Shown here piece after piece: positions 1-11,905 of a stretch of 12,139 nucleotides of DNA (positions within the stretch are counted from its first letter, which is position 1; each line of letters begins with the position of its first letter). The notes beneath the pieces were generated by a model. That model made no database searches. It was not told where the DNA came from and worked only from the letters and a program-made list of their open reading frames with translations. The stretch comes from a virus. Taxonomy: Duplodnaviria; Heunggongvirae; Uroviricota; Caudoviricetes. The stretch is taken from IMG/VR virus record IMGVR_UViG_2541047682_000010; one strand, given 5' to 3'. The position numbers and the translations under genes were made by a program.

Positions 1-213
1 TTTCCGGGGCGCATCATGCTGGCTAATACCTGCACCTGGACCTATCGCGGTGATGAGTGCGGTTATCACGGTCCGGCTGTCGCGGATGAATATGACCAGC
101 CGACGTCCGATATCACGAAGGATAAATGCAGCAAATGCCTGAGTGGTTGTAAGTTTCGCAATAACGTCGGCAACTTTGGCGGCTTCCTTTCCATTAACAA
201 ACTTTCGCAGTAA
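1..213 (+). CDS. L: Tail tip protein L, 3' partial (5' end lies upstream of the window)
   Basis: Frame is open from base 1 to TAA at 211-213. The translated C-terminus (CTWTYRGDECGYHGPAVADEYDQPTSDITKDKCSKCLSGC...) matches my recollection of lambda gpL, and the position directly upstream of K-I-J fits lambda gene order. Confidence 0.85.
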   Translation, partial: FPGRIMLANTCTWTYRGDECGYHGPAVADEYDQPTSDITKDKCSKCLSGCKFRNNVGNFGGFLSINKLSQ

Positions 214-217
214 TCCC

Positions 218-961
218 ATGACACAGACAGAATCAGCGATTCTGGCGCACGCCCGGCGATGTGCGCCAGCGGAGTCGTGCGGCTTCGTGGTGAGAACGCC
301 GGAGGGGGAAAGATATTTTCCCTGCGTGAATATCTCCGGTGAGCCGGAGGCGTATTTCCGGATGTCGCCGGAGGACTGGCTGCGGGCAGAGATGCAGGGT
401 GAGATTGTGGCGCTGGTCCACAGCCACCCCGGTGGTCTGCCCTGGCTGAGTGAGGCCGACCGGCGGCTGCAGGTGCAGAGTGATTTGCTGTGGTGGCTGG
501 TCTGCCGGGGTGAGATTCATAAATTCCGCTGTGTGCCGCATCTTACCGGGCGGCGCTTTGAGCACGGGGTGACGGACTGTTACACGCTGTTCCGGGATGC
601 TTATCATCTGGCGGGGATTGAGATGCCGGATTTTCATCGCGGGGATGACTGGTGGCGTCACGGTCAGAATCTCTATCTGGATAATCTGGAGGCCACAGGG
701 CTGTATCAGGTGCCGTTGTCAGCGGCGCAGCCGGGCGATGTGCTGCTGTGCTGTTTTGGTTCATCGGTGCCGAATCATGCCGCCATTTACTGTGGTGACG
801 GCGAGCTGCTGCACCATATTCCTGAACAACTGAGCAAACGAGAGAGGTATACCGACAAATGGCAGCGACGCACACACTCCCTCTGGCGTCACCGGGCATG
901 GCACGCATCTGCCTTTACGGGGATTTGCAACGATTTGGTCGCCGCATCGACCTTCGTGTGA
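218..961 (+). CDS. K: Tail tip assembly protein K, with an N-terminal JAB/MPN (JAMM) domain and a C-terminal NlpC/P60 domain
   Basis: ATG at 218 lies 4 nt after the L stop. A JAMM motif HSHPGGLPWLSEAD (HxHx7SxxD) and an NlpC/P60-like Cys/His pair (GVTDCYTLF ... NHAAIYCGDGELLHH) are visible in the translation. An in-frame ATG at 362, preceded by GGAGG, would give the 199-aa form I recall from the classical lambda annotation, so the start is uncertain. Confidence 0.8.
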   Translation: MTQTESAILAHARRCAPAESCGFVVRTPEGERYFPCVNISGEPEAYFRMSPEDWLRAEMQGEIVALVHSHPGGLPWLSEADRRLQVQSDLLWWLVCRGEIHKFRCVPHLTGRRFEHGVTDCYTLFRDAYHLAGIEMPDFHRGDDWWRHGQNLYLDNLEATGLYQVPLSAAQPGDVLLCCFGSSVPNHAAIYCGDGELLHHIPEQLSKRERYTDKWQRRTHSLWRHRAWHASAFTGICNDLVAASTFV

Positions 962-1506
962 AAACGGGGGCCGAAGCCATCCGGGCGCTGGCCACACAGC
1001 TCCCGGCGTTTCGTCAGAAACTGAATGACGGCTGGTATCAGGTGCGCATTGCCGGGCGTGATGCAGGTGAAACCGAATTATCTGCCCGTCTTAATGAGCC
1101 GCTGGCAAATGGTGCCGTGATCCATATCGTGCCGCGTCTGGCGGGAGCTAAAAGTGGCGGTGTATTTCAGGTGGTGCTGGGGGCGGCGTTGATTGCGGTG
1201 GCATGGTGGAACCCTGTGGGCTGGCTGGGTGCCGCGGCTGTATCGGGCATGTATGCGGCAGGGGCCAGTATGATCCTGGGCGGTGTGGCGCAGATGCTGG
1301 CACCGAAAGCCAGGACGTCCACGGCAGCCAGTACAGATAACGGCAAACAGAACACCTATTTTTCCTCACTGGATAACATGGTTGCTCAGGGCAATGTTCT
1401 GCCTGTTCTGTACGGTGAAATGCGTGTGGGGTCGCGGGTGGTTTCTCAGGAGATCAGCACGGCAGACGAAGGGGATGGTGGTCAGGTTGTGGTGATTGGT
1501 CGCTGA
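859..1506 (+). CDS. I: Tail assembly protein I, ubiquitin-like (beta-grasp) N-terminal domain followed by a Gly/Ala-rich hydrophobic C-terminal region
   Basis: Translation begins MAATHTLPLASPGMARICLYGDLQRFGRRIDLRVKTGAEAIRALATQLPAF, which matches lambda gpI as I recall it. It overlaps the 3' end of K by 103 nt in a different frame. A ubiquitin-like tail IHIVPRLAGAKSGG is present. Confidence 0.9.
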   Translation: MAATHTLPLASPGMARICLYGDLQRFGRRIDLRVKTGAEAIRALATQLPAFRQKLNDGWYQVRIAGRDAGETELSARLNEPLANGAVIHIVPRLAGAKSGGVFQVVLGAALIAVAWWNPVGWLGAAAVSGMYAAGASMILGGVAQMLAPKARTSTAASTDNGKQNTYFSSLDNMVAQGNVLPVLYGEMRVGSRVVSQEISTADEGDGGQVVVIGR

Positions 1507-1525
1507 TGCAAAATGTTTTATGTGA

Positions 1526-1545
1526 AACCGCCTGCGGGCGGTTTT
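1526..1545 (+). other. Intergenic stem-loop between I and J (8-bp stem AAACCGCC/GGCGGTTT, 4-nt loop), followed by a U-rich stretch
   Basis: Perfect inverted repeat read directly from the sequence. It sits 20 nt after the I stop and 22 nt before the J start. Function unknown; possibly an mRNA structural element or a weak terminator. Confidence 0.3.
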
Positions 1546-1566
1546 GTCGTTTATGGAGCATGACGA

Positions 1567-4500
1567 ATGGGTAAAGGCAGCAGTAAGGGGCATACCCCGC
1601 GCGAAGCGAAGGACAACCTGAAATCCACGCAGTTACTGAGTGTGATCGATGCCATCAGCGAAGGACCGATAGAAGGTCCGGTGGATGGATTAAAAAGCGT
1701 GCTGCTGAACAGTACGCCGGTGCTGGACAGTGAAGGGAATACCAACATCGCCGGTGTCACGGTGGTGTTCCGGGCAGGTGAGCAGGAGCAGACACCGCCG
1801 GAGGGATTTGAATCCTCCGGATCCGAGACGGTGCTGGGTACGGAAGTGAAATATGACACGCCGATCACCCGCACCATCACGTCGGCAAACATCGACCGTC
1901 TGCGCTTTACCTTCGGTGTGCAGGCACTGGTGGAAACCACCTCAAAGGGGGACAGGAATCCATCGGAAGTCCGCCTGCTGGTTCAGATACAACGTAACGG
2001 TGGCTGGGTGACGGAAAAAGACATCACCATTAAGGGCAAAACCACGTCGCAGTATCTGGCCTCGGTGGTGGTGGATAACCTGCCGCCGCGCCCGTTTAAT
2101 ATCCGGATGCGCAGGATGACGCCGGACAGCACCACAGACCAGCTGCAGAACAAAACGCTCTGGTCGTCATACACCGAAATCATCGATGTGAAACAGTGCT
2201 ACCCGAACACGGCACTGGTCGGCGTGCAGGTGGACTCGGAACAGTTCGGCAGCCAGCAGGTGAGTCGTAATTATCATCTTCGCGGGCGCATTCTGCAGGT
2301 GCCGTCGAACTATAACCCGCAGAGGCGGCAATACAGCGGTATCTGGGACGGAACGTTTAAACCGGCATACAGCAACAACATGGCATGGTGTCTGTGGGAT
2401 ATGCTGACCCATCCGCGCTACGGCATGGGGAAACGTCTTGGTGCGGCGGATGTGGACAAATGGGCGCTGTATGTCATCGGACAGTATTGCGACCAGTCGG
2501 TGCCGGATGGTTTTGGTGGCACGGAGCCGCGCATCACCTGTAATGCGTACCTGACCACACAGCGCAAGGCGTGGGATGTGCTCAGTGATTTCTGCTCGGC
2601 GATGCGCTGTATGCCGGTATGGAACGGGCAGACGCTGACGTTCGTGCAGGACCGACCGTCGGATAAGGTGTGGACCTATAACCGCAGTAATGTGGTGATG
2701 CCGGATGATGGCGCGCCGTTCCGCTACAGCTTCAGCGCCCTGAAGGACCGCCATAATGCCGTTGAGGTGAACTGGATTGACCCGGATAACGGCTGGGAGA
2801 CGGCGACAGAGCTTGTTGAAGATACGCAGGCCATTCTCCGTTACGGTCGTAACGTCACGAAGATGGATGCCTTTGGCTGTACCAGTCGGGGGCAGGCACA
2901 CCGCGCCGGGCTGTGGCTGATTAAAACGGAGCTGCTGGAAACGCAGACCGTGGACTTCAGCGTGGGTGCTGAAGGGCTTCGCCATGTACCGGGCGATGTC
3001 ATTGAAATCTGCGATGATGACTATGCCGGTATCAGCACCGGCGGGCGAGTGCTGGCGGTGAACAGCCAGACCCGGACGCTGACGCTCGACCGTGAAATCA
3101 CGCTGCCATCCTCCGGTACCACGCTGATAAGCCTGGTTGACGGAAGTGGCAATCCGGTCAGCGTGGAGGTTCAGTCCGTCACCGACGGCGTGAAGGTAAA
3201 AGTGAGCCGTGTTCCTGACGGTGTTGCTGAATACAGCGTATGGGGGCTGAAGCTGCCGACGCTGCGCCAGCGACTGTTCCGCTGCGTGAGTATCCGTGAG
3301 AACGACGACGGCACGTATGCCATCACCGCCGTGCAGCATGTGCCGGAAAAAGAGGCCATCGTGGATAACGGAGCGCACTTTGACGGCGACCAGAGCGGCA
3401 CGGTGAATGGTGTCACGCCGCCAGCGGTGCAGCACCTGACCGCCGAAGTCACCGCAGACAGCGGGGAATATCAGGTGCTGGCGCGCTGGGACACGCCGAA
3501 GGTGGTGAAGGGCGTGAGCTTCCTGCTCCGTCTGACCGTAACAGCGGATGACGGCAGTGAGCGGCTGGTCAGCACGGCCCGGACGGCGGAAACCACTTAC
3601 CGCTTCAGGCAGCTGGCGCTGGGGCGTTACACGCTGACGGTCCGGGCGGTAAATGCCCGGGGACAGCAGGGCGATCCGGCGTCGGTATCGTTCCGGATTG
3701 CCGCACCGGCAGCGCCGTCTCGGATTGAGCTGACACCGGGCTATTTTCAGATAACCGCCACGCCACATCTTGCGGTTTATGACCCGACGGTACAGTTTGA
3801 GTTCTGGTTCTCGGAAAAACGGATTGCGGATATCAGGCAGGTTGAAACCACAGCCCGCTATCTTGGCACGGCGCTGTACTGGATAGCTGCCAGTATCAAT
3901 ATCAGGCCGGGCCATGATTATTATTTTTACGTTCGCAGTGTGAACACCGTTGGCAAATCGGCATTCGTGGAGGCTGTTGGTCGGGCGAGCGATGATGCGG
4001 AAGGTTACCTGGATTTTTTCAAAGGCCAGATAACCGAATCCCATCTTGGCAAGGAGCTGCTGGAAAAAGTCGAGCTGACGGAGGATAACGCCAGCAAACT
4101 GGAGGAGTTTTCGAAAGAGTGGAAGGACGCCAGTGATAAGTGGAATGCCATGTGGGGCGTCAAAATTGAGCAGACCAAAGACGGCAAACATTATGTCGCG
4201 GGTATTGGCCTCAGCATGGAGGACACGGAGGAAGGCAAACTGAGCCAGTTCCTGGTTGCCGCTAACCGTATCGCGTTTATTGATCCGTCTAATGGCAACA
4301 CAAGACCAATGTTTGTTGGTCAGGGCGATCAGATATTCATGAACGACGTGTTCCTGAAACGCCTGACGGCTCCGACCATTACCAGCGGCGGTAATCCTCC
4401 GGCATTTTCCCTGACACCGGATGGGCGGCTGACGGCGAAAAATGCCGATATCAGCGGTAACGTGAATGCGAACTCCGGGACGCTCAACAACGTCACGATT

Positions 4501-4962
4501 AACGAGAACTGTCGGGTTCTGGGAAAACTGTCCGCGAACCAGATTGAAGGCGATCTCGTTAAAACAGTGGGCAAAGCTTTCCCCCGGGACTCCCGTGCAC
4601 CGGAACGGTGGCCATCAGGGACCATTACCGTCAGGGTTTATGACGATCAGCCGTTTGACCGGCAGATTGTTATTCCTGCGGTGGCATTCAGCGGCGCTAA
4701 ACATGAGAGAGAGCATACTGATATTTACTCCTCATGCCGTCTGATAGTGCGGAAAAACGGTGCTGAAATTTATAACCGTACCGCGCTGGATAATACGCTG
4801 ATTTACAGTGGCGTTATTGATATGCCTGCCGGTCACGGTCACATGACGCTGGAGTTTTCGGTGTCAGCATGGCTGGTAAATGACTGGTATCCCACAGCAA
4901 GTATCAGCGATTTGCTGGTTGTGGTGATGAAGAAAGCCACCGCAGGCATCAGTATCAGCTGA
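1567..4962 (+). CDS. J: Central tail fibre / host specificity protein J (1131 aa)
   Basis: Single long ORF with GGAG 8 nt upstream of the ATG. The N-terminus [54 protein letters not shown] matches my recollection of lambda gpJ, and the length is close to lambda J (1132 aa). Confidence 0.95.
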
Positions 4963-4981
4963 ATTTTATAACCCATATACG

Positions 4982-5008
4982 GGCGCCAGAATTGGCGCCT
5001 TTTTTATT
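4982..5008 (+). terminator. Rho-independent terminator after J (7-bp stem GGCGCCA/TGGCGCC, loop GAAT, then TTTTTTATT)
   Basis: Perfect hairpin followed by a T-run, 20 nt after the J stop. Confidence 0.65.
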
Positions 5009-5029
5009 GCAGAAAAGCGAGAGGTAATT

Positions 5030-5629
5030 ATGCGTAAAGTTTGTGCAGCCATTTTGTCCGCAGCCATTTGTCTGGCCGTATCCGGTGCGCCTGCATGGGC
5101 GTCTGAACATCAGTCCACGCTGAGCGCGGGGTATCTTCATGCCTCGACGAACGTCCCCGGCAGTGATGATCTGAACGGGATTAACGTGAAATACCGTTAT
5201 GAGTTTACGGACACACTGGGGCTGGTGACGTCATTCAGCTATGCAGGAGACAAGAATCGCCAGCTGACCCGTTACAGCGATACCCGCTGGCATGAAGATT
5301 CCGTTCGTAACCGCTGGTTCAGCGTAATGGCGGGGCCGTCTGTGCGCGTGAATGAATGGTTCAGCGCGTATGCGATGGCGGGTGTGGCTTACAGCCGTGT
5401 GTCGACTTTCTCCGGGGATTATCTTCGCGTAACTGACAACAAGGGGAAAAAGCACGATGTGCTGACCGGAAGTGATGACGGTCGCCACAGCAACACGTCT
5501 CTGGCGTGGGGGGCTGGCGTGCAGTTTAACCCGACCGAATCCGTGGCCATTGATATTGCTTATGAAGGCTCCGGCAGTGGCGACTGGCGCACTGACGGTT
5601 TCATCGTGGGTGTCGGTTATAAGTTCTGA
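5030..5629 (+). CDS. lom: Lom, Ail/Lom-family outer-membrane beta-barrel protein (lysogenic-conversion moron)
   Basis: 199-aa ORF with an N-terminal signal peptide (MRKVCAAILSAAICLAVSGAPAWA) and a C-terminal aromatic residue (ends GVGYKF), typical of OM beta-barrels. It sits after J as in lambda, with GAGAGG 6 nt upstream of the ATG. Confidence 0.9.
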   Translation: MRKVCAAILSAAICLAVSGAPAWASEHQSTLSAGYLHASTNVPGSDDLNGINVKYRYEFTDTLGLVTSFSYAGDKNRQLTRYSDTRWHEDSVRNRWFSVMAGPSVRVNEWFSAYAMAGVAYSRVSTFSGDYLRVTDNKGKKHDVLTGSDDGRHSNTSLAWGAGVQFNPTESVAIDIAYEGSGSGDWRTDGFIVGVGYKF

Positions 5630-5655
5630 TTAGCCAGGTAACACAGTGTTATGAC

Positions 5656-5682
5656 AGCCCGCCGGTTCAGGCGGGCTTTTTT
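5656..5682 (+). terminator. Rho-independent terminator after lom (8-bp stem AGCCCGCC/GGCGGGCT, loop GGTTCA, then TTTTTT)
   Basis: Perfect hairpin and T6 tract read from the sequence, 27 nt after the lom stop. Confidence 0.7.
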
Positions 5683-6242
5683 GTGGAGTGGATATGGCAG
5701 CAGTAAAAATCTCAGGTGTGCTGAAAGATGGTGCGGGAAAACCAATACAGAACTGCACTATTCAACTGAAGGCAAAGCGTAACAGCACCACGGTACTGGT
5801 GAACACGGTGGCCTCTGAAAATCCGGATGAAGCCGGGCGTTACAGCATGGATGTTGAGTATGGTCAGTACAGCGTCACCCTGCTGGTTGAAGGTTTTCCG
5901 CCTTCACATGCCGGGACCATTACCGTCTATGAAGGTTCCAGACCAGGTACGCTGAATGATTTTCTCGGTGCCATGACGGAAGATGATGTCATGCCGGAGG
6001 CATTGCGTCGTTTTGAGGCAATGGTGGAAGAAGCGGCACGCAACGCCGAAGCCGCCTCTCAGAGCGCAGCAGCGGCAAAGAAATCCGAAACTGCAGCGGC
6101 ATCATCGAAGAACGCGGCGAAAACCTCAGAAACAAATGCAGCTAACAGCGCACAGGCGGCAGCGTCCTCGCAGACTGCATCGGCAAACTCCGCGACAGCA
6201 GCCAAAAAATCAGAAACCAACGCGAAAAATAGCGAGACAGCC

Positions 6243-6382
6243 GCAAAGACGAGCGAAACCAACGCAAAGTCCAGCCAGACGGCAGCGAAAACAAGCGAAA
6301 CGAATGCCAAAGCCAGTGAAACTGCGGCAAAAAACAGCCAGGTTGCAGCAGCCCAAAGCGAGAGCGCGGCAGCCGGTTCTGC
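6243..6382 (+). repeat. Direct repeat copy 1 (about 140 bp) inside the stf shaft coding region
   Basis: Near-identical to 6432-6571, offset 189 bp (63 codons). Encodes AKTSETNAKSSQTAAKTSETNAKASETAAKNSQ.AAAQSESAAAGS. Confidence 0.75.
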
Positions 6383-6431
6383 GACTTCAGCAGCTGGATC
6401 AGCAACTGCTGCGGCTAACAGCCAGAAAGCT

Positions 6432-6571
6432 GCGAAGACGAGTGAAACTAACGCAAAGTCCAGCCAGACGGCAGCGAAGACCAGCGAAACGAATGCCAAA
6501 GCCAGCGAAACTGCGGCGAAAAACAGTCAGGATGCAGCAGCCCAAAGCGAGAGTGCTGCAGCTGGTTCTGC
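6432..6571 (+). repeat. Direct repeat copy 2 (about 140 bp) inside the stf shaft coding region
   Basis: Near-identical to 6243-6382; same reading frame and same peptide repeat. Confidence 0.75.
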
Positions 6572-7227
6572 AAGCGCGGCGGCTGCTTCTGCCACTGCAT
6601 CAGCCAACAGTCAAAAAGCAGCAAAAACCAGTGAAACCAATGCAAAGACAAGCGAGACTGCAGCGGCGAACTCGGCGAAAGCATCCGCTGCAAGCCAGAC
6701 CGCTGCAAAAGCAAGTGAAGACGCAGCCAGAGAGTATGCAAGCCAGGCAGCAGATCCGTATAAATATGTCTTACAGCCGCTGCCTGATGTGTGGATACCG
6801 TTTAACGATTCACTGGATATGATTACGGGCTTTTTGCCATCATATAAAAAGATTGTTATTGGTGACGACGAAATAACGATGCCTGGCGACAAGATTGTTA
6901 AGTTTAAACGTGCATCGAAAGCAACCTATATTAACAAATCTGGTGTGCTGACAGAGGCTGCCATTGATGAGCCACGATTTGAACGTGATGGCCTGCTTAT
7001 TGAGGGGCAAAGAACTAATCTTCTGCTTAATTCAACAAATCCATCTAAATGGAATAAGTCAGGCAATCTGGAACTCACAGAAATATCCACGGATTCTTTT
7101 AATTTTACTTATGGGAGATTTACTGTAAAAGATACTCTTATTGGTCAGACAAGTGCTATTAATATCGTAACGATTTCTGGCAGTAAAGGGTTTGATGTCA
7201 CAGGTGATGAAAAATATGTGACCATTT

Positions 7228-7232
7228 CATGC
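7228..7232. repeat. IS2 target-site duplication, left copy (CATGC)
   Basis: Identical 5-mer immediately flanks both IS2 termini. IS2 is known to make 5-bp duplications. Confidence 0.85.
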
Positions 7233-7243
7233 TGGATTTGCCC

Positions 7244-8149
7244 CTATATTTCCAGACACCTGTTATCACTTAACCCATTACTGGCTTGCTGCCGCAGATA
7301 TTCCCGTGGCGAGCGATAACCCAGTGCACTATGCGGATGCCATTCGTTATAATGCTCGAACGCCTCTGCAAGGTTCTTTGCTGCCGTTAACCCGTCTGGT
7401 TTGGGCATGACACTGATGTAGTCACGCTTTATCGTTTTCACGAAGCTCTCTGCTATGCCGTTACTCTCCGGACTCCGCACCGCCGTGCTCTTCGGTTCAA
7501 GCCCCAACATCCGGGCAAACTGCCGTGTTTCATTAGCCCGGTAGCATGAACCATTATCCGTCAGCCACTCTACTGGAGACGCCGGAAGCTCGTTGCCGAA
7601 GCGGCGTTCCACCGCTCCCAGCATGACGTCCTGTACTGTTTCACTGTTGAAGCCGCCCGTAGTGACCGCCCAGTGCAGTGCCTCACGGTCACAGCAGTCC
7701 AGCGCGAACGTGACTCGCAGTTTTTCTCCGTTATCACAGCGGAACTCGAACCCGTCAGAGCACCATCGCTGATTACTTTCTTTCACAGCCACTCTGCCTG
7801 TATGTGCCCGTTTCGATGGCGGTACAGCAGGTTTTCGCTCAAGCAACAGCGCATTCTGGCGCATGATCCGGTAAACACGTTTGGCATTGATCGCAGGCAT
7901 ACCATCAAGTTCTGCCTGTCTGCGAAGCAGCGCCCATACCCGACGATAACCATACGTGGGCAGCTCTCCGATAACATGGTGTATACGGAGAAGCACATCC
8001 GTATCATCAGTGTGACGACTGCGGCGGCCATCCATCCAGTCATCGGTTCGTCTGAGAATGACGTGCAACTGCGCACGCGACACCCGGAGACAACGGCTGA
8101 CTAAGCTTACTCCCCATCCCCGGGCAATAAGGGCGCGTGCGCTATCCAC
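7244..8149 (-). CDS. insD: IS2 transposase OrfB (InsD; DDE integrase-like catalytic domain), 301 aa
   Basis: Translation [23 protein letters not shown]...[12 protein letters not shown] is recognised as IS2 InsD. It overlaps insC by 43 nt, where an A6G slippery run (CAAAAAAG on the - strand, about 8149-8156) is the known site of programmed -1 frameshifting that produces the OrfAB transposase. Confidence 0.9.
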
Positions 8150-8472
8150 TTTTTTGCCCGTCCATATTCAACGGCTTCTTTGAGGAGTTCATTTTCCATC
8201 GTTTTCTTGCCGAGCAGGCGCTGGAGTTCTTTAATCTGCTTCATGGCGGCAGCAAGTTCAGAGGCAGGAACAACCTGTTCTCCGGCGGCGACAGCAGTAA
8301 GACTTCCTTCCTGGTATTGCTTACGCCAGAGAAATAACTGGCTGGCTGCCACACCGTGTTGCCGGGCAACGAGGGAGACCGTCATCCCTGGTTCAAAGCT
8401 CTGCTGAACAATTGCGATCTTTTCCTGTGTGGTACGCCGTCTGCGTTTCTCCGGTCCTAAGACATCAATCAT
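8107..8472 (-). CDS. insC: IS2 OrfA (InsC; helix-turn-helix regulator and transposase N-terminal part), 121 aa
   Basis: Translation [56 protein letters not shown]... is recognised as IS2 InsC. The ORF track gives an extended 136-aa frame from 8517; the canonical start is the internal Met. Confidence 0.9.
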
Positions 8473-8563
8473 CTGCTCTCCAATGACTAGTCTAAAAACT
8501 AGTATTAAGACTATCACTTAAATAAGTGATATTGGTTGTCTGGAGATTCAGGGGGCCAGTCTA

Positions 8564-8568
8564 CATGC
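8564..8568. repeat. IS2 target-site duplication, right copy (CATGC)
   Basis: Identical to 7228-7232. Confidence 0.85.
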
Positions 8569-9407
8569 CGTGTAAGAAGTGATGTTGAAAATATAAGGTG
8601 TCGTTTAAGATTTGAACACCATGATGGTTATACTTACACTTTTTTGGGAGATGCTTACCTCAATTTATCAACACTTGTAATTGATAAAACTGGTACTGCT
8701 GCAGACCGTATTATTGCAAAGGCTGTAAAAGATGAGGTTACTGGTTGGATTTTCTATCAGGCTACAATTAATGCACTAGATACAGAGAGCATGATTGGTG
8801 CGATGGTTCAATACGCTCCTGTAAAAGGTTCAGGTACAGCATCTGGAGACTATCTGGATATCGCAACTCCACAAGTGGAAGGTGGATCAAGTGCTTCGTC
8901 ATTTATTGTAACTGATATAACTGCAAGCACTCGCGCAAGCGATATGGTGACAGTCCCAATCAAGAATAACCTTTATAATCTTCCTTTTACGGTTCTTTGT
9001 GAGGTACATAAGAACTGGTATAAAACGCCAAATGCAGCACCGCGTGTTTTTGATACCGGCGGTCATCAAACCGGAGCGGCTATTATTCTTGGCTTCGGTC
9101 GTTCAACAGATTACGACGGATTTCCTTATTGTGATATAGGTTTGGCTAACAGACGGGTAAACGAAAACGCATCGCTTGAAAAAATGGTTATGGGGATGCG
9201 TGTAAAGTCAGATCAGTCTACGTGCTCAGTAAGTAACGGGCGTATATCCAGCGAAAAGAAAGCCACATGGTCCTATATTCAGAACTCCGCAATTATCCGT
9301 ATTGGAGGCCAGACTACAGCCGGGTTGCGTCATTTATTTGGTCATGTCAGGAATTTCAGAATATGGCACAAGGCATTGACTGATGCTCAGATGGGGGAGT
9401 CAATCTA

Positions 9408-9689
9408 ATGAAAGATTTAACACTCAAATTTGCAGACAGGGCCGACTTTTCGGCCTTTATGGATAGCATTGGCTATTATGATGACGAGTCGATGCAGGAT
9501 GATATTCTTATTGACGTGATAGGTAACGTGTACAAAGAAACCGGAGAACTGACTGAAGATGGCGAACCGGTATGTGTTAAGGAAGATGGATATTTTGTAA
9601 ACGTGCGCATCATTAATGATGCAAAAAAATCGTTAATATTCGATGAATACGCGGTTGTAGTTGAACATCAACTTCGTGGCTGGATGTGA
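9408..9689 (+). CDS. Hypothetical small acidic protein (93 aa), translationally coupled to stf
   Basis: The ATG overlaps the stf stop (TAATG). GGGGAG lies 9 nt upstream. Low G+C like the distal stf domain. Asp/Glu-rich. No family recognised. Confidence 0.6.
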   Translation: MKDLTLKFADRADFSAFMDSIGYYDDESMQDDILIDVIGNVYKETGELTEDGEPVCVKEDGYFVNVRIINDAKKSLIFDEYAVVVEHQLRGWM

Positions 9690-9698
9690 GGGAGACAA

Positions 9699-10403
9699 AT
9701 GGCTACATCGACAGTAATTCCAGGAGACATCACCACGTTAAAGGGAGATGTCAGTAAAGCCAAGGAAGATATTTCCTCAATTAACGGAAAAGTATCAACG
9801 CTTCAGGCTGATATGACCAGTGCAAAGCAGGATATCAGCACCAGATACACAAAAACTGAAGTTGATAATAAGCTGAAAAACAAACTGGAAGTGAACGCTC
9901 TGGAAAGCGGTCGTTATGGTGGAGATTTTTACCCGTTGACTGGCCGTGAAGCGTTTTATTTGTGGGGATTGGGCACGACTACAGCGGCGGCAAACCTTTA
10001 TCTTAATCCTGACCCCGCAATTTCGTCTGTGCTGCGGTCAACATCGTCTATCCGCTATAAACATTCAGTAGAGACAATAGATTCAGAGCACGCCGATCTC
10101 ATTTTCAGGATGCGCCCTGTGTGGTACAGGTCACAATGCGAAAATGACAGGCGTGACTGGGGATTCTACGGATTGATTGCCGAGGAAGTAGGAGAAATTG
10201 CCCCTCAGTTTGTACACTGGCGACCAGCTAACGAAGATGATGCACCGGAAGCTATTTCCAGCAATGGCCTTGTTGCCGAAGGTGTAATGTACGAACGTCT
10301 GGTTGTTCCACTGATTCACCATATCCAGAAGCTGACTGAAAGAGTTGATGAACTTGAGTCAGAATTAAAGTTGTTATCCGTTTCCCGAAGCGATATCGGA
10401 TAA
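9699..10403 (+). CDS. Tail-fibre-related protein with a coiled-coil N-terminus and a C-terminal peptidase-S74-like intramolecular-chaperone domain (234 aa)
   Basis: GGGAG lies 6 nt before the ATG. The C-terminal 120 residues carry the characteristic S74 pattern: SSIRYKHSVETID (compare SDxRxKxNI), then RPVWYR, then GLIAEEVGEIAPQFV, then MYERLVVPLIHHIQKLTERVDELESEL. The N-terminus has heptad-like repeats (DITTLKGDVSKAKEDISSINGKVSTLQADMTSAKQDIS). Confidence 0.75.
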   Translation: MATSTVIPGDITTLKGDVSKAKEDISSINGKVSTLQADMTSAKQDISTRYTKTEVDNKLKNKLEVNALESGRYGGDFYPLTGREAFYLWGLGTTTAAANLYLNPDPAISSVLRSTSSIRYKHSVETIDSEHADLIFRMRPVWYRSQCENDRRDWGFYGLIAEEVGEIAPQFVHWRPANEDDAPEAISSNGLVAEGVMYERLVVPLIHHIQKLTERVDELESELKLLSVSRSDIG

Positions 10404-10413
10404 AGGAGGAGTA

Positions 10414-10707
10414 ATGGATATAACACCTTTCCTTCATGCGCTTTGTGCTGTGGCTGCGCAGCTACTGATTGGTCTTTTTACCGGGAACTGGGCTTACGGG
10501 GCGATAGCTGGTTGTACGTTCTTCATTGCGCGTGAACACACCCAGGCAGAATATCGCTGGATTGAAATGTTCGGGCATGGCAAGCGAATGAATATGCCGT
10601 GGTGGGGCGGTTTTGATCCGCGCGCGTGGGATGTGGCAAGCCTGATGGATTTTGCTGTGCCGGTGGTGGCGTGTCTGCTGGTCTGGCTGTTGGTTAATCG
10701 TGGGTGA
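10414..10707 (+). CDS. Hypothetical small membrane protein (97 aa, two to three predicted transmembrane segments)
   Basis: Strong RBS AAGGAGG 7 nt before the ATG. Hydrophobic stretches FLHALCAVAAQLLIGLF, AYGAIAGCTFFIA and FAVPVVACLLVWLLV. G+C is similar to the phage backbone, not the low-GC cassette. Confidence 0.55.
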   Translation: MDITPFLHALCAVAAQLLIGLFTGNWAYGAIAGCTFFIAREHTQAEYRWIEMFGHGKRMNMPWWGGFDPRAWDVASLMDFAVPVVACLLVWLLVNRG

Positions 10708-10717
10708 AAAAAGGTGA

Positions 10718-10837
10718 GCTGTATATGCAACGGAGGAAGAAACCTCGTTGCTGGAAGCCTGGAAGAAGTATCGGGTGTTGCTGAACCGTGTTGATACGTC
10801 AACTGCACAGGATATTGAATGGCCAGCACTGCCGTAG
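10718..10837 (+). pseudogene. tfa: 3' remnant (39 codons) of the tail fibre assembly gene tfa
   Basis: The frame opens right after a TGA at 10715-10717 and reads [39 protein letters not shown]-stop. This matches the conserved C-terminus of lambda-type Tfa as I recall it (..[30 protein letters not shown]..). There is no start codon and no N-terminal Tfa domain. Confidence 0.7.
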
Positions 10838-10934: not shown

Positions 10935-11525
10935 TTATATGTCAGGTGTCTGAAGTTTTGCTTTGGCTCTTAAAATGGTTTGCCGCGAGGTTTTGAATTC
11001 CCGGGCAATGGCACTTATACTTACACCTGACTTAATTCGTTCGAATACCACCTGTTTCTGTTCTTCATTTAACACAGGTGGTCGACCAAAACGTTTCCCT
11101 GCGCCCCGGGCTCTTACTATCCCGGAATGAGTGCGTTCAAGTAAAAGGTCTCGTTCAAATTCAGCGACTGCTGAAATTACTTGCATCATCATTTTCCCTG
11201 TTGGACTGGTCAGGTCAATGCCCCCCAATGCTAAGCAATGCACTCTGATACCTGTTTCGGTCAGTTGTTCCACTGTTTTCCTGATATCCATTGCATTACA
11301 ACCAAGGCGATCCAGTTTTGTCACAATCAATTGATCACCACATTTCAGACGAGCAAGCAACCGGTTAAAACCAGGACGCTCACTGGTTGCTGCTGAGCCG
11401 CTAATGTGTTCTTCGATTATTTGCTGAGGTTTGATTTTAAAACCTGCACTTTCGATTTCCCGGCGTTGATTTTCGGTGGTCTGATCCAGCGTTGATATCC
11501 GACAGTAAGCAAAAATTCGAGACAT
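10935..11525 (-). CDS. pin: Serine recombinase (resolvase/invertase family, PinR/PinQ-like), 196 aa
   Basis: N-terminal catalytic motif YCRISTLDQ with the nucleophilic Ser, and a C-terminal helix-turn-helix ([20 protein letters not shown]). The sequence matches my recollection of the E. coli prophage PinR/PinQ proteins. Position next to tfa is as in Rac and Qin. Confidence 0.9.
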
Positions 11526-11905
11526 AGTGAGACTCTATACGAAATTGGTGTACATATCATAATGCATATCCAAAAATTATTTCGCTTATTATTGTACATA
11601 TTTGTATGTATACGTTCGAAAATAAACGAATTCGGATGCAGTCCCGTAATTTTGGTGTAACCAAAAATCGATTTTTTGAAAAATGGCTTTAACTCGGTTT
11701 GTTTTTCGAACTCCGGGCGGACTCGAGGAAGACGAATAATAGTGTTGTATGTTATTTCAACCAGATTTTAAGTTGTTTGGTCGTGGAAAAGTGGAGCAAA
11801 ATGTTGTTAAAGTGGAAAAATGGTAAAAAAAGTAGGTTGTTGCGGAATAACGTAGTTGTTGATATTTTTTTAATGCATTGAAAAATTATTTTTCAGGGGG
11901 GGGTA
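11526..11905. promoter_or_regulatory. AT-rich intergenic region upstream of pin: presumed pin promoter, with short direct repeats (TGTACATAT at about 11548 and 11595) and a G8 homopolymer at 11896-11903
   Basis: No convincing ORF. Very AT-rich. Lies 5' of pin on the - strand and 3' of the small - strand ORF. I could not place -35/-10 elements with confidence. Confidence 0.3.

Follow-up and report, generated by a model that had tools for sequence, protein, structure and literature searches.

The stretch of phage DNA analysed here (12,139 nucleotides, referred to as the window) contains tail genes of a lambda-like prophage, in which the gene for the side tail fibre, stf, is split by an insertion sequence. 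This raises the question of how and when the gene was interrupted and what the interruption means for the phage. An earlier note on this DNA had described a recent IS2 insertion in the distal domain of the fibre and had taken it as a sign that the prophage was decaying or being domesticated. According to the evidence presented below, it is very probable that IS2 entered stf a single time, in the ancestor of a clonal E. coli lineage, and that the insertion has been inherited vertically since then.

The segment between positions 7233 and 8563 was found to be a complete IS2 of 1331 bp on the minus strand, with its transposase genes antisense to stf. Its gap-free alignment with IS2A of strain K-12 showed 31 substitutions (97.67% identity). 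The ISfinder rule for isoforms is roughly 95% nucleotide identity, and the window copy was treated as an isoform of IS2. Its IRR end, at 7233, adjoins the 5' fragment of stf, and its IRL end lies at 8563. The terminal inverted repeats are imperfect, and their arms were found at both ends. The right repeat occupies 41 bp (7233-7273, minus strand) and carries one substitution relative to K-12 IS2A, at IS position 1305; the left repeat occupies 42 bp (8522-8563, minus strand), and its first 41 nucleotides are the same as in K-12 IS2A. Two further substitutions relative to K-12 IS2A lie just inside IRL. The lengths of 41 bp for IRR and 42 bp for IRL are those reported for IS2, an element that transposes by copy-and-paste through a minicircle (PMC3299598).

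Both genes of the element are open. The insC gene (orfA; 8107-8472, minus strand) encodes 121 amino acids followed by a stop codon; its product is identical to K-12 InsC, contains the Pfam domain HTH_Tnp_1 and matched the NCBIfam model NF006928, 'IS2 repressor TnpA', over its full length (276 bits, cut-off 229). The insD gene (orfB; 7244-8149, minus strand) encodes 301 amino acids and a stop codon, with the Pfam domains rve and rve_3, and its product gave a full-length match to NF006918, 'IS2 transposase TnpB' (713 bits, cut-off 597). InsD differs from its K-12 counterpart by eight amino acid substitutions, none of which affects a DDE residue. The overlap of insC and insD contains the A6G slippery motif AAAAAAG (8149-8155, minus strand; IS positions 409-415). 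In IS2, this slippery window causes a programmed -1 frameshift between orfA and orfB that leads to the OrfAB transposase, and D306 and E342 have been named as residues of its DDE triad (PMC3219604). When the -1 shift was simulated in silico at the A6G motif, an open OrfAB frame of 409 amino acids was obtained, with an intact triad consisting of D240 (WCSD), D306 (LTDNG) and E342 (IAESF). Because full-length copies with 100% identity were found in further E. coli genomes, in different genomic contexts, it may be concluded that this isoform is mobile within E. coli; it is common in strains other than K-12 (678 records at 99% identity or more). Judging from its sequence, the window copy is a full-length and apparently competent element, which agrees with the earlier description of a full-length IS2 with intact insC and insD.

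The element is bordered on both sides by the pentanucleotide CATGC (7228-7232 on the left and 8564-8568 on the right, with no strand assigned), and 1331 bp lie between the two copies. Because the sixth base outward differs between them (T vs A), the duplication is exactly 5 bp long. Target-site duplications of IS2 are 5 bp in length. A matching pentamer at the fixed ends of an element is expected by chance with a frequency of 1/1024, and the reality of the duplication was settled by the natural empty allele, which carries a single CATGC. A 5-bp spacing of the catalytic centres of IS2 has also been mentioned (PMC3299598). Apparently, an active IS2 isoform transposed once, in a copy-out/paste-in event, into stf of a lambda-like prophage; it would have landed after codon 513 of the gene and generated the 5-bp duplication.

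Deletion of positions 7233-8568 in silico resulted in a single uninterrupted reading frame with no internal stop codon, encoding 794 amino acids from GTG 5688 or 792 amino acids from ATG 5694, the latter being the start used in the RefSeq annotation of relatives. The reconstructed gene matched the undamaged stf of strain ESC818 (WP_000741761.1) at 2379 of 2379 nucleotides, and between 5387 and 11105 the window and ESC818 differ solely by IS2 and one copy of CATGC. At least 20 complete E. coli genomes, among them those of S88 and APEC O1, contain the reconstructed empty site, taken as 800 bp with a single CATGC, at 100% identity. The earlier claims of a perfect CATGC duplication and of the restoration of one in-frame gene by excision were thus confirmed, both by translation of the reconstructed gene, in which no additional frameshift or stop was found, and by comparison with relatives lacking the insertion.

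The window matches a scaffold-level assembly from 2013, and IS copies often break short-read assemblies (the contigs of loci L018 and L019 stop at the border of the element); an IS2 copy might, then, have been misplaced into stf by the assembler. However, the same junctions were found in independent assemblies from different projects, including contigs of chromosome length (~5 Mb), and an exact duplication of 5 bp is what genuine transposition leaves behind. Misassembly is so improbable that it may be disregarded.

The interrupted gene follows K, I, J and lom in the window and in its relatives, which is the gene order of lambda. Its 5' part, codons 1-513 (5694-7232, plus strand), comprises the N-terminal domain, the shaft and the beginning of the distal domain. 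The N-terminus matched Pfam PF08400, the 'prophage tail fibre N-terminal' domain found in Stf, at amino acids 5-134 in the numbering from GTG (E 5e-67), and 61% identity over 285 amino acids (E 2e-83) was found to lambda orf-401, the N-terminal part of lambda Stf. The shaft consists of repeats rich in Ala, Ser and Thr. Within its coding sequence there is a direct repeat, in which 6228-6476 and 6417-6665 are 83% identical at an offset of 189 bp; this part of the shaft (6228-6665) encodes 'SETNAK' repeats, and it is a place where several short-read contigs from relatives end.

The distal part of the protein has a different affiliation. Residues 435-636 of the intact Stf matched NCBIfam NF048003, 'phage head spike fiber domain' (58.6 bits, cut-off 36), and the distal part aligned weakly (E 2.5e-4) with PDB entry 6TB9, the head-spike fibre Rcc01080 of the gene transfer agent of R. 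capsulatus. In the window, the NF048003 domain is encoded in two pieces on the plus strand, residues 435-513 at 6996-7232 and residues 514-636 at 8569-8937. The break point after residue 513, between VTISC and RVRSD, lies in the middle of the 6TB9 alignment, and the statement that stf was split inside its distal domain was therefore correct. A C-terminal tip of the T4 gp37 type, accompanied by a downstream Tfa, was not found in this Stf, the distal part of which matches NF048003 and 6TB9. On the basis of these similarities, the gene is a homologue of lambda stf in its N-terminal part and shaft only, and its distal part is a different module.

The 3' part of stf, codons 514-792 and the stop codon (8569-9408, plus strand), contains the remainder of the distal domain and the C-terminus and is severed from the start codon. 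Full-length counterparts of its 279 residues, with 74-90% identity, form the ends of fibre proteins in 196 sequenced phages. Because the lateral or side tail fibre proteins of these 196 phages carry it, the intact distal module is used by working virions. The only in-frame starts available to the 3' fragment are TTG 8536, which lies inside IRL, TTG 8644 and ATG 8791; no evidence was found for the use of any of these three codons, and the fragment would have no proper start codon. The 5' part continues into IS2, where 28 codons and a stop (7233-7319, plus strand) end the product. The resulting chimeric frame (5694-7319) encodes Stf residues 1-513 and 28 IS2-derived residues, 541 amino acids in all. 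Such a product would consist of the tail-attachment N-terminus and the shaft, cut inside the domain resembling a head-spike fibre and followed by 28 junk residues. These features strongly suggest that the fibre function of Stf was lost by the insertion. The allele would be null or severely crippled, with the tail-attachment N-terminus and shaft kept and the 279 distal residues gone.

The distribution of the filled site was studied in several sets of genomes. The filled junction was found in none of 5426 RefSeq complete E. coli genomes, the exact junction pattern in none of the GTDB species representatives, and the filled site was absent from all 1208 RefSeq complete genomes retrieved with the empty-site query. 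The zero among the 5426 genomes and that in GTDB suggested an insertion private to one strain; this was ruled out by 53 contigs encoding exactly the chimeric protein. These contigs were obtained by a cluster look-up with the 541-amino-acid product (accessions such as EQN15122.1), and the exact look-up returned 58 index blocks; the chimeric protein is already present in public protein databases. The identical intact protein of 792 amino acids occurs on 586 contigs and is approximately 11 times more common than the chimera. The carrier accessions are not among the RefSeq complete genomes, and the zero obtained with RefSeq reflects the composition of that set. This may serve as a methodological warning, since complete RefSeq genomes alone hinted at a private and very recent event and wider assemblies revealed a shared and older one.

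Six carrier loci (L004-L009) were compared with the window, and both junctions were present in each of them. The IS2 and stf of these loci were identical to those of the window. The exception was L008, which deviated at two single bases; in one of these cases the slip-site homopolymer is one base shorter. Nine further loci, retrieved via the exact J protein of the window, either contained the junction or were on short-read contigs ending in stf (window position 7002) or at the IS2 edge (7230 and 7251). The junction is shared by every one of the 15 carrier loci that extend to the site, and the empty site was found in none of them. The window itself is contained exactly in scaffold KE698841.1 of assembly GCA_000456085.1. 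An apparent disruption of J in the carrier L007 was traced to a scaffold gap of 630 N, and J has no lesion there.

Over 4 kb of chromosomal flank, from prfC onward, pairs of carriers are 0-2 SNPs apart, whereas 67-68 SNPs separate them from ESC818, which has the empty site. The shared junctions and the small number of SNPs in the flank are consistent with one insertion in one clonal ancestor. A search for a complete genome of this lineage in which the site is empty was negative; S88 came nearest, at 99.0%. The event would have taken place once, in the ancestor of this E. coli lineage, and have been passed on vertically since then.

The carriers differ at up to ~150 positions in K-I-J, and this might indicate that the site in stf is a hot spot hit by IS2 independently in several strains. 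The K-I-J differences, however, form clustered blocks typical of recombination, and outside these blocks L006 and L009 are near-identical to the empty-site phage. Moreover, the IS2 sequence, its orientation and the junctions are the same in all carriers, the chromosomal flank is clonal, and no filled site appeared among the 1208 complete genomes mentioned above. Repeated insertion at this site is therefore extremely unlikely.

With a single ancestral insertion as the preferred explanation, the later history of the lineage can be followed. Where carriers differ, the differences are concentrated in K, I and J and in the tail genes upstream of them. In this region (window 143-4962), at least three haplotypes, separated by blocks of 80-250 substitutions, were observed among carriers with the same flank. 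Over ~14 kb of tail genes, only ~8 positions distinguish L006 and L009 from the phage of ESC818, which has the empty site; the haplotype of the window and L004 and that of L005 show blocks of 150-250 differences. Because these blocks lie within the IS2-bearing lineage, at least two recombination replacements took place after the insertion. The blocks represent recombination with other lambdoid prophages, and the window haplotype is a derived one.

In L008 (CP163971.1), a second insertion was observed, an ISEc52 element (IS3 family, 1.25 kb) with the ends TGAAGTGG...CCACTTCA. It is located at 14638-15884 of that locus, inside orf234, at a place equivalent to window ~10326-10331. The IS2 insertion is older than the gain of ISEc52 in L008 and older than the K-I-J replacements.

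In the earlier note, the insertion was called recent. This holds in the sense that no substitutions have accumulated in 3.7 kb of IS2 and stf, but the insertion is present on at least 53 contigs and predates the diversification of the lineage. The carrier assemblies span accessions from GCA_0004... to GCA_0439.... Substitution rates in E. coli are ~1e-7 to 1e-6 per site per year. By rough, not rigorously computed, inference, the insertion is decades to centuries old.

The prophage lies between yjjG and prfC. A near-identical tail module (~8 differences per 14 kb) was observed at the same site in ESC818, where the flanks differ by 1.7%. Because the tail modules are near-identical and the flanks are 1.7% apart, a recent independent lysogenisation or transfer of the phage may be assumed.

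These observations bear on the possibility that IS2 is only one symptom of a prophage that was already defective and eroding, a neutral hit in dead DNA. Several features are consistent with erosion: a tfa pseudogene fragment adjoins the invertase gene in all relatives, the carrier L008 has ISEc52 in orf234 as a second IS, the early region of the ESC818 prophage contains ISEc31 (L010 22743-23956, between the KilA-N and RusA genes), and in L015 (JACWXE010000445.1) the gene calls around gpM at 4763-5939 are altered, with products of 53 and 302 amino acids in place of one of 109. However, none of the remaining genes of the window differs in length from its counterpart in relatives, and the ESC818 prophage has a full gene set comprising integrase, repressor, Q, lysis, terminase, portal, capsid and tail genes. 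In addition, stf has no lesion other than IS2, and the occurrence of a near-identical tail module in chromosomes 1.7% apart points to recent horizontal spread of a working phage. An insertion into an already dead prophage is therefore unlikely, though it deserves to be kept in mind.

The lengths of K, I, J, lom, orf93, orf234, orf97, the serine recombinase and ydfK were all equal to those in the annotated empty-site relative. With the other window genes full-length as in relatives, and since stf is dispensable in lambda, it does not follow from the insertion that the prophage is decaying or being domesticated; decay is possible, and nothing suggests domestication. Different members of the prophage family bear different IS hits, such as ISEc31 in ESC818. 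In L015, the gene calls around gpM (53 and 302 amino acids, with no Pfam match) differ from those of all other loci, which suggests a further rearrangement or insertion.

The region downstream of the chimeric gene was also considered. It contains three intact genes on the plus strand: orf93 (9408-9689), whose start codon overlaps the stf stop codon as TAATG, orf234 (9699-10403), encoding a protein with a Peptidase_S74 chaperone domain, and orf97 (10414-10707). Expression of orf93, orf234 and orf97 (9408-10707) may be reduced by polarity from IS2. Because the stf stop overlaps the orf93 start, translational coupling between the two genes was probably lost. Late transcription in lambdoid phages is Q-antiterminated, and this could soften any transcriptional polarity of IS2. 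A consensus scan around IS2 revealed no terminator-like sites, and promoter-like sites did not exceed the shuffled expectation; this result supports neither the presence nor the absence of polarity or of outward promoters. A scan of the window with Rfam gave no match.

The orf234 product is a short, separate fibre protein, whose C-terminal Peptidase_S74 domain is of the intramolecular-chaperone type; its similarity is to the C-termini of very long fibre proteins of phages (phrog_3299 and phrog_454). Further downstream, a serine recombinase of the DNA-invertase type (196 amino acids; 10935-11525, minus strand; Resolvase and HTH_7 domains; phrog_125, 'DNA invertase') is adjoined by a tail-fibre-assembly (tfa) pseudogene fragment at ~10727-10837 on the plus strand, annotated in relatives. 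Together, the recombinase gene and the tfa fragment look like the remnant of an invertible fibre-switching segment of the Pin/Gin type. A search of the window for inverted repeats delimiting such a segment beside the recombinase gene gave weak pairs only and no convincing crossover sites. Between the recombinase gene and ydfK, the sequence at 11552-11903 is highly divergent from that of ESC818, with many substitutions and an indel of ~64 bp, and the DNA on either side is nearly identical to that of ESC818.

Selection for the insertion was considered as a further explanation. In this case, the lineage would have gained from losing the fibre, from a change in how IS2 lets neighbouring genes be expressed or from a reversible IS switch, and the insertion would be an adaptive or a domestication step. 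The allele is fixed in every member of the lineage examined, and the perfect duplication would in principle permit precise excision. However, clonal fixation is expected for any neutral ancestral mutation, and no parallel independent insertions were seen. In addition, IS2 is antisense to stf, the scan gave no promoter-like or terminator-like signal above the shuffled expectation, and the intact allele is the commoner one by the factor given above (586 contigs vs 53). An adaptive origin is thus very unlikely.

It is equally doubtful, to the point of being barely plausible, that the insertion represents a selected or reversible state instead of a neutral knock-out, with the truncated Stf still forming a collar and shaft or with IS2 excision acting as a switch. 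If this were true, a phage with truncated Stf would rely on J or on the separate orf234 fibre, or precise excision of IS2 via the 5-bp repeat (e.g., by an IS-excision enhancer) would restore the side fibre in a subpopulation, so that the switch would amount to bet-hedging of host range for the prophage of this lineage. Under the favoured explanation, a single ancestral insertion inherited clonally, the allele would be neutral or hitch-hiking and not selected.

The practical significance of the finding is limited. The IS2 insertion can serve as a clean marker of one clonal E. coli lineage, with little importance beyond bookkeeping, and it explains the 541-amino-acid 'prophage tail fiber N-terminal domain-containing protein' that annotation pipelines report at this locus. 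If the prophage were induced, the particles would probably be devoid of working side fibres. A literature search on IS2 in side tail fibre genes did not reveal a description of this insertion, the sole match being an unrelated Salmonella paper.

Comparison with known systems indicates how far the case is an ordinary one. The element resembles K-12 IS2A (NC_000913 381260-382590) in its length of 1331 bp, the identical InsC, the orfA/orfB overlap with the A6G motif, the DDE residues, the 41/42-bp ends and the 5-bp duplication; unlike IS2A, it has the 31 substitutions, including one in IRR and two inside IRL, and the eight changes in the InsD protein. The closest parallel for the damaged gene is lambda PaPa (orf-401/orf-314), in which the homologous gene after J and lom was hit and the fibre truncated with its N-terminal part left, but the lesion there is a 1-bp frameshift and in the window it is an IS insertion. 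Laboratory lambda carries this stf frameshift and plaques normally, and the side fibres speed adsorption 10-30 fold without changing plaque numbers (PMC12617516). By analogy, the phage need not be dead from the lesion in stf, and particles missing the fibres could have narrower or slower adsorption, as in laboratory lambda.

The gene also differs from lambda stf in that its distal part resembles the head-spike fibre of a gene transfer agent and not T4 gp37, and in that no intact tfa follows it. Its 279 C-terminal amino acids are shared, at 74-90% identity, with the Escherichia phages KurtStettler, 2G7b and PhiR63_1 and with T5-like Salmonella phages; in those siphophages, however, the fibre genes are intact and lie in unrelated, mostly virulent genomes, and the distal module alone is common to them and the window. 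Finally, the insertion is similar to other IS hits in E. coli prophages, namely ISEc31 in ESC818 and ISEc52 in L008, which also belong to the IS3 family and are inherited as lineage markers. Those cases involve other elements and other sites, but the IS2 case is not mechanistically distinct from them. It is an insertion of a fully known kind, a textbook IS2 with its target duplication, and genes of this class are frequent targets of IS elements.
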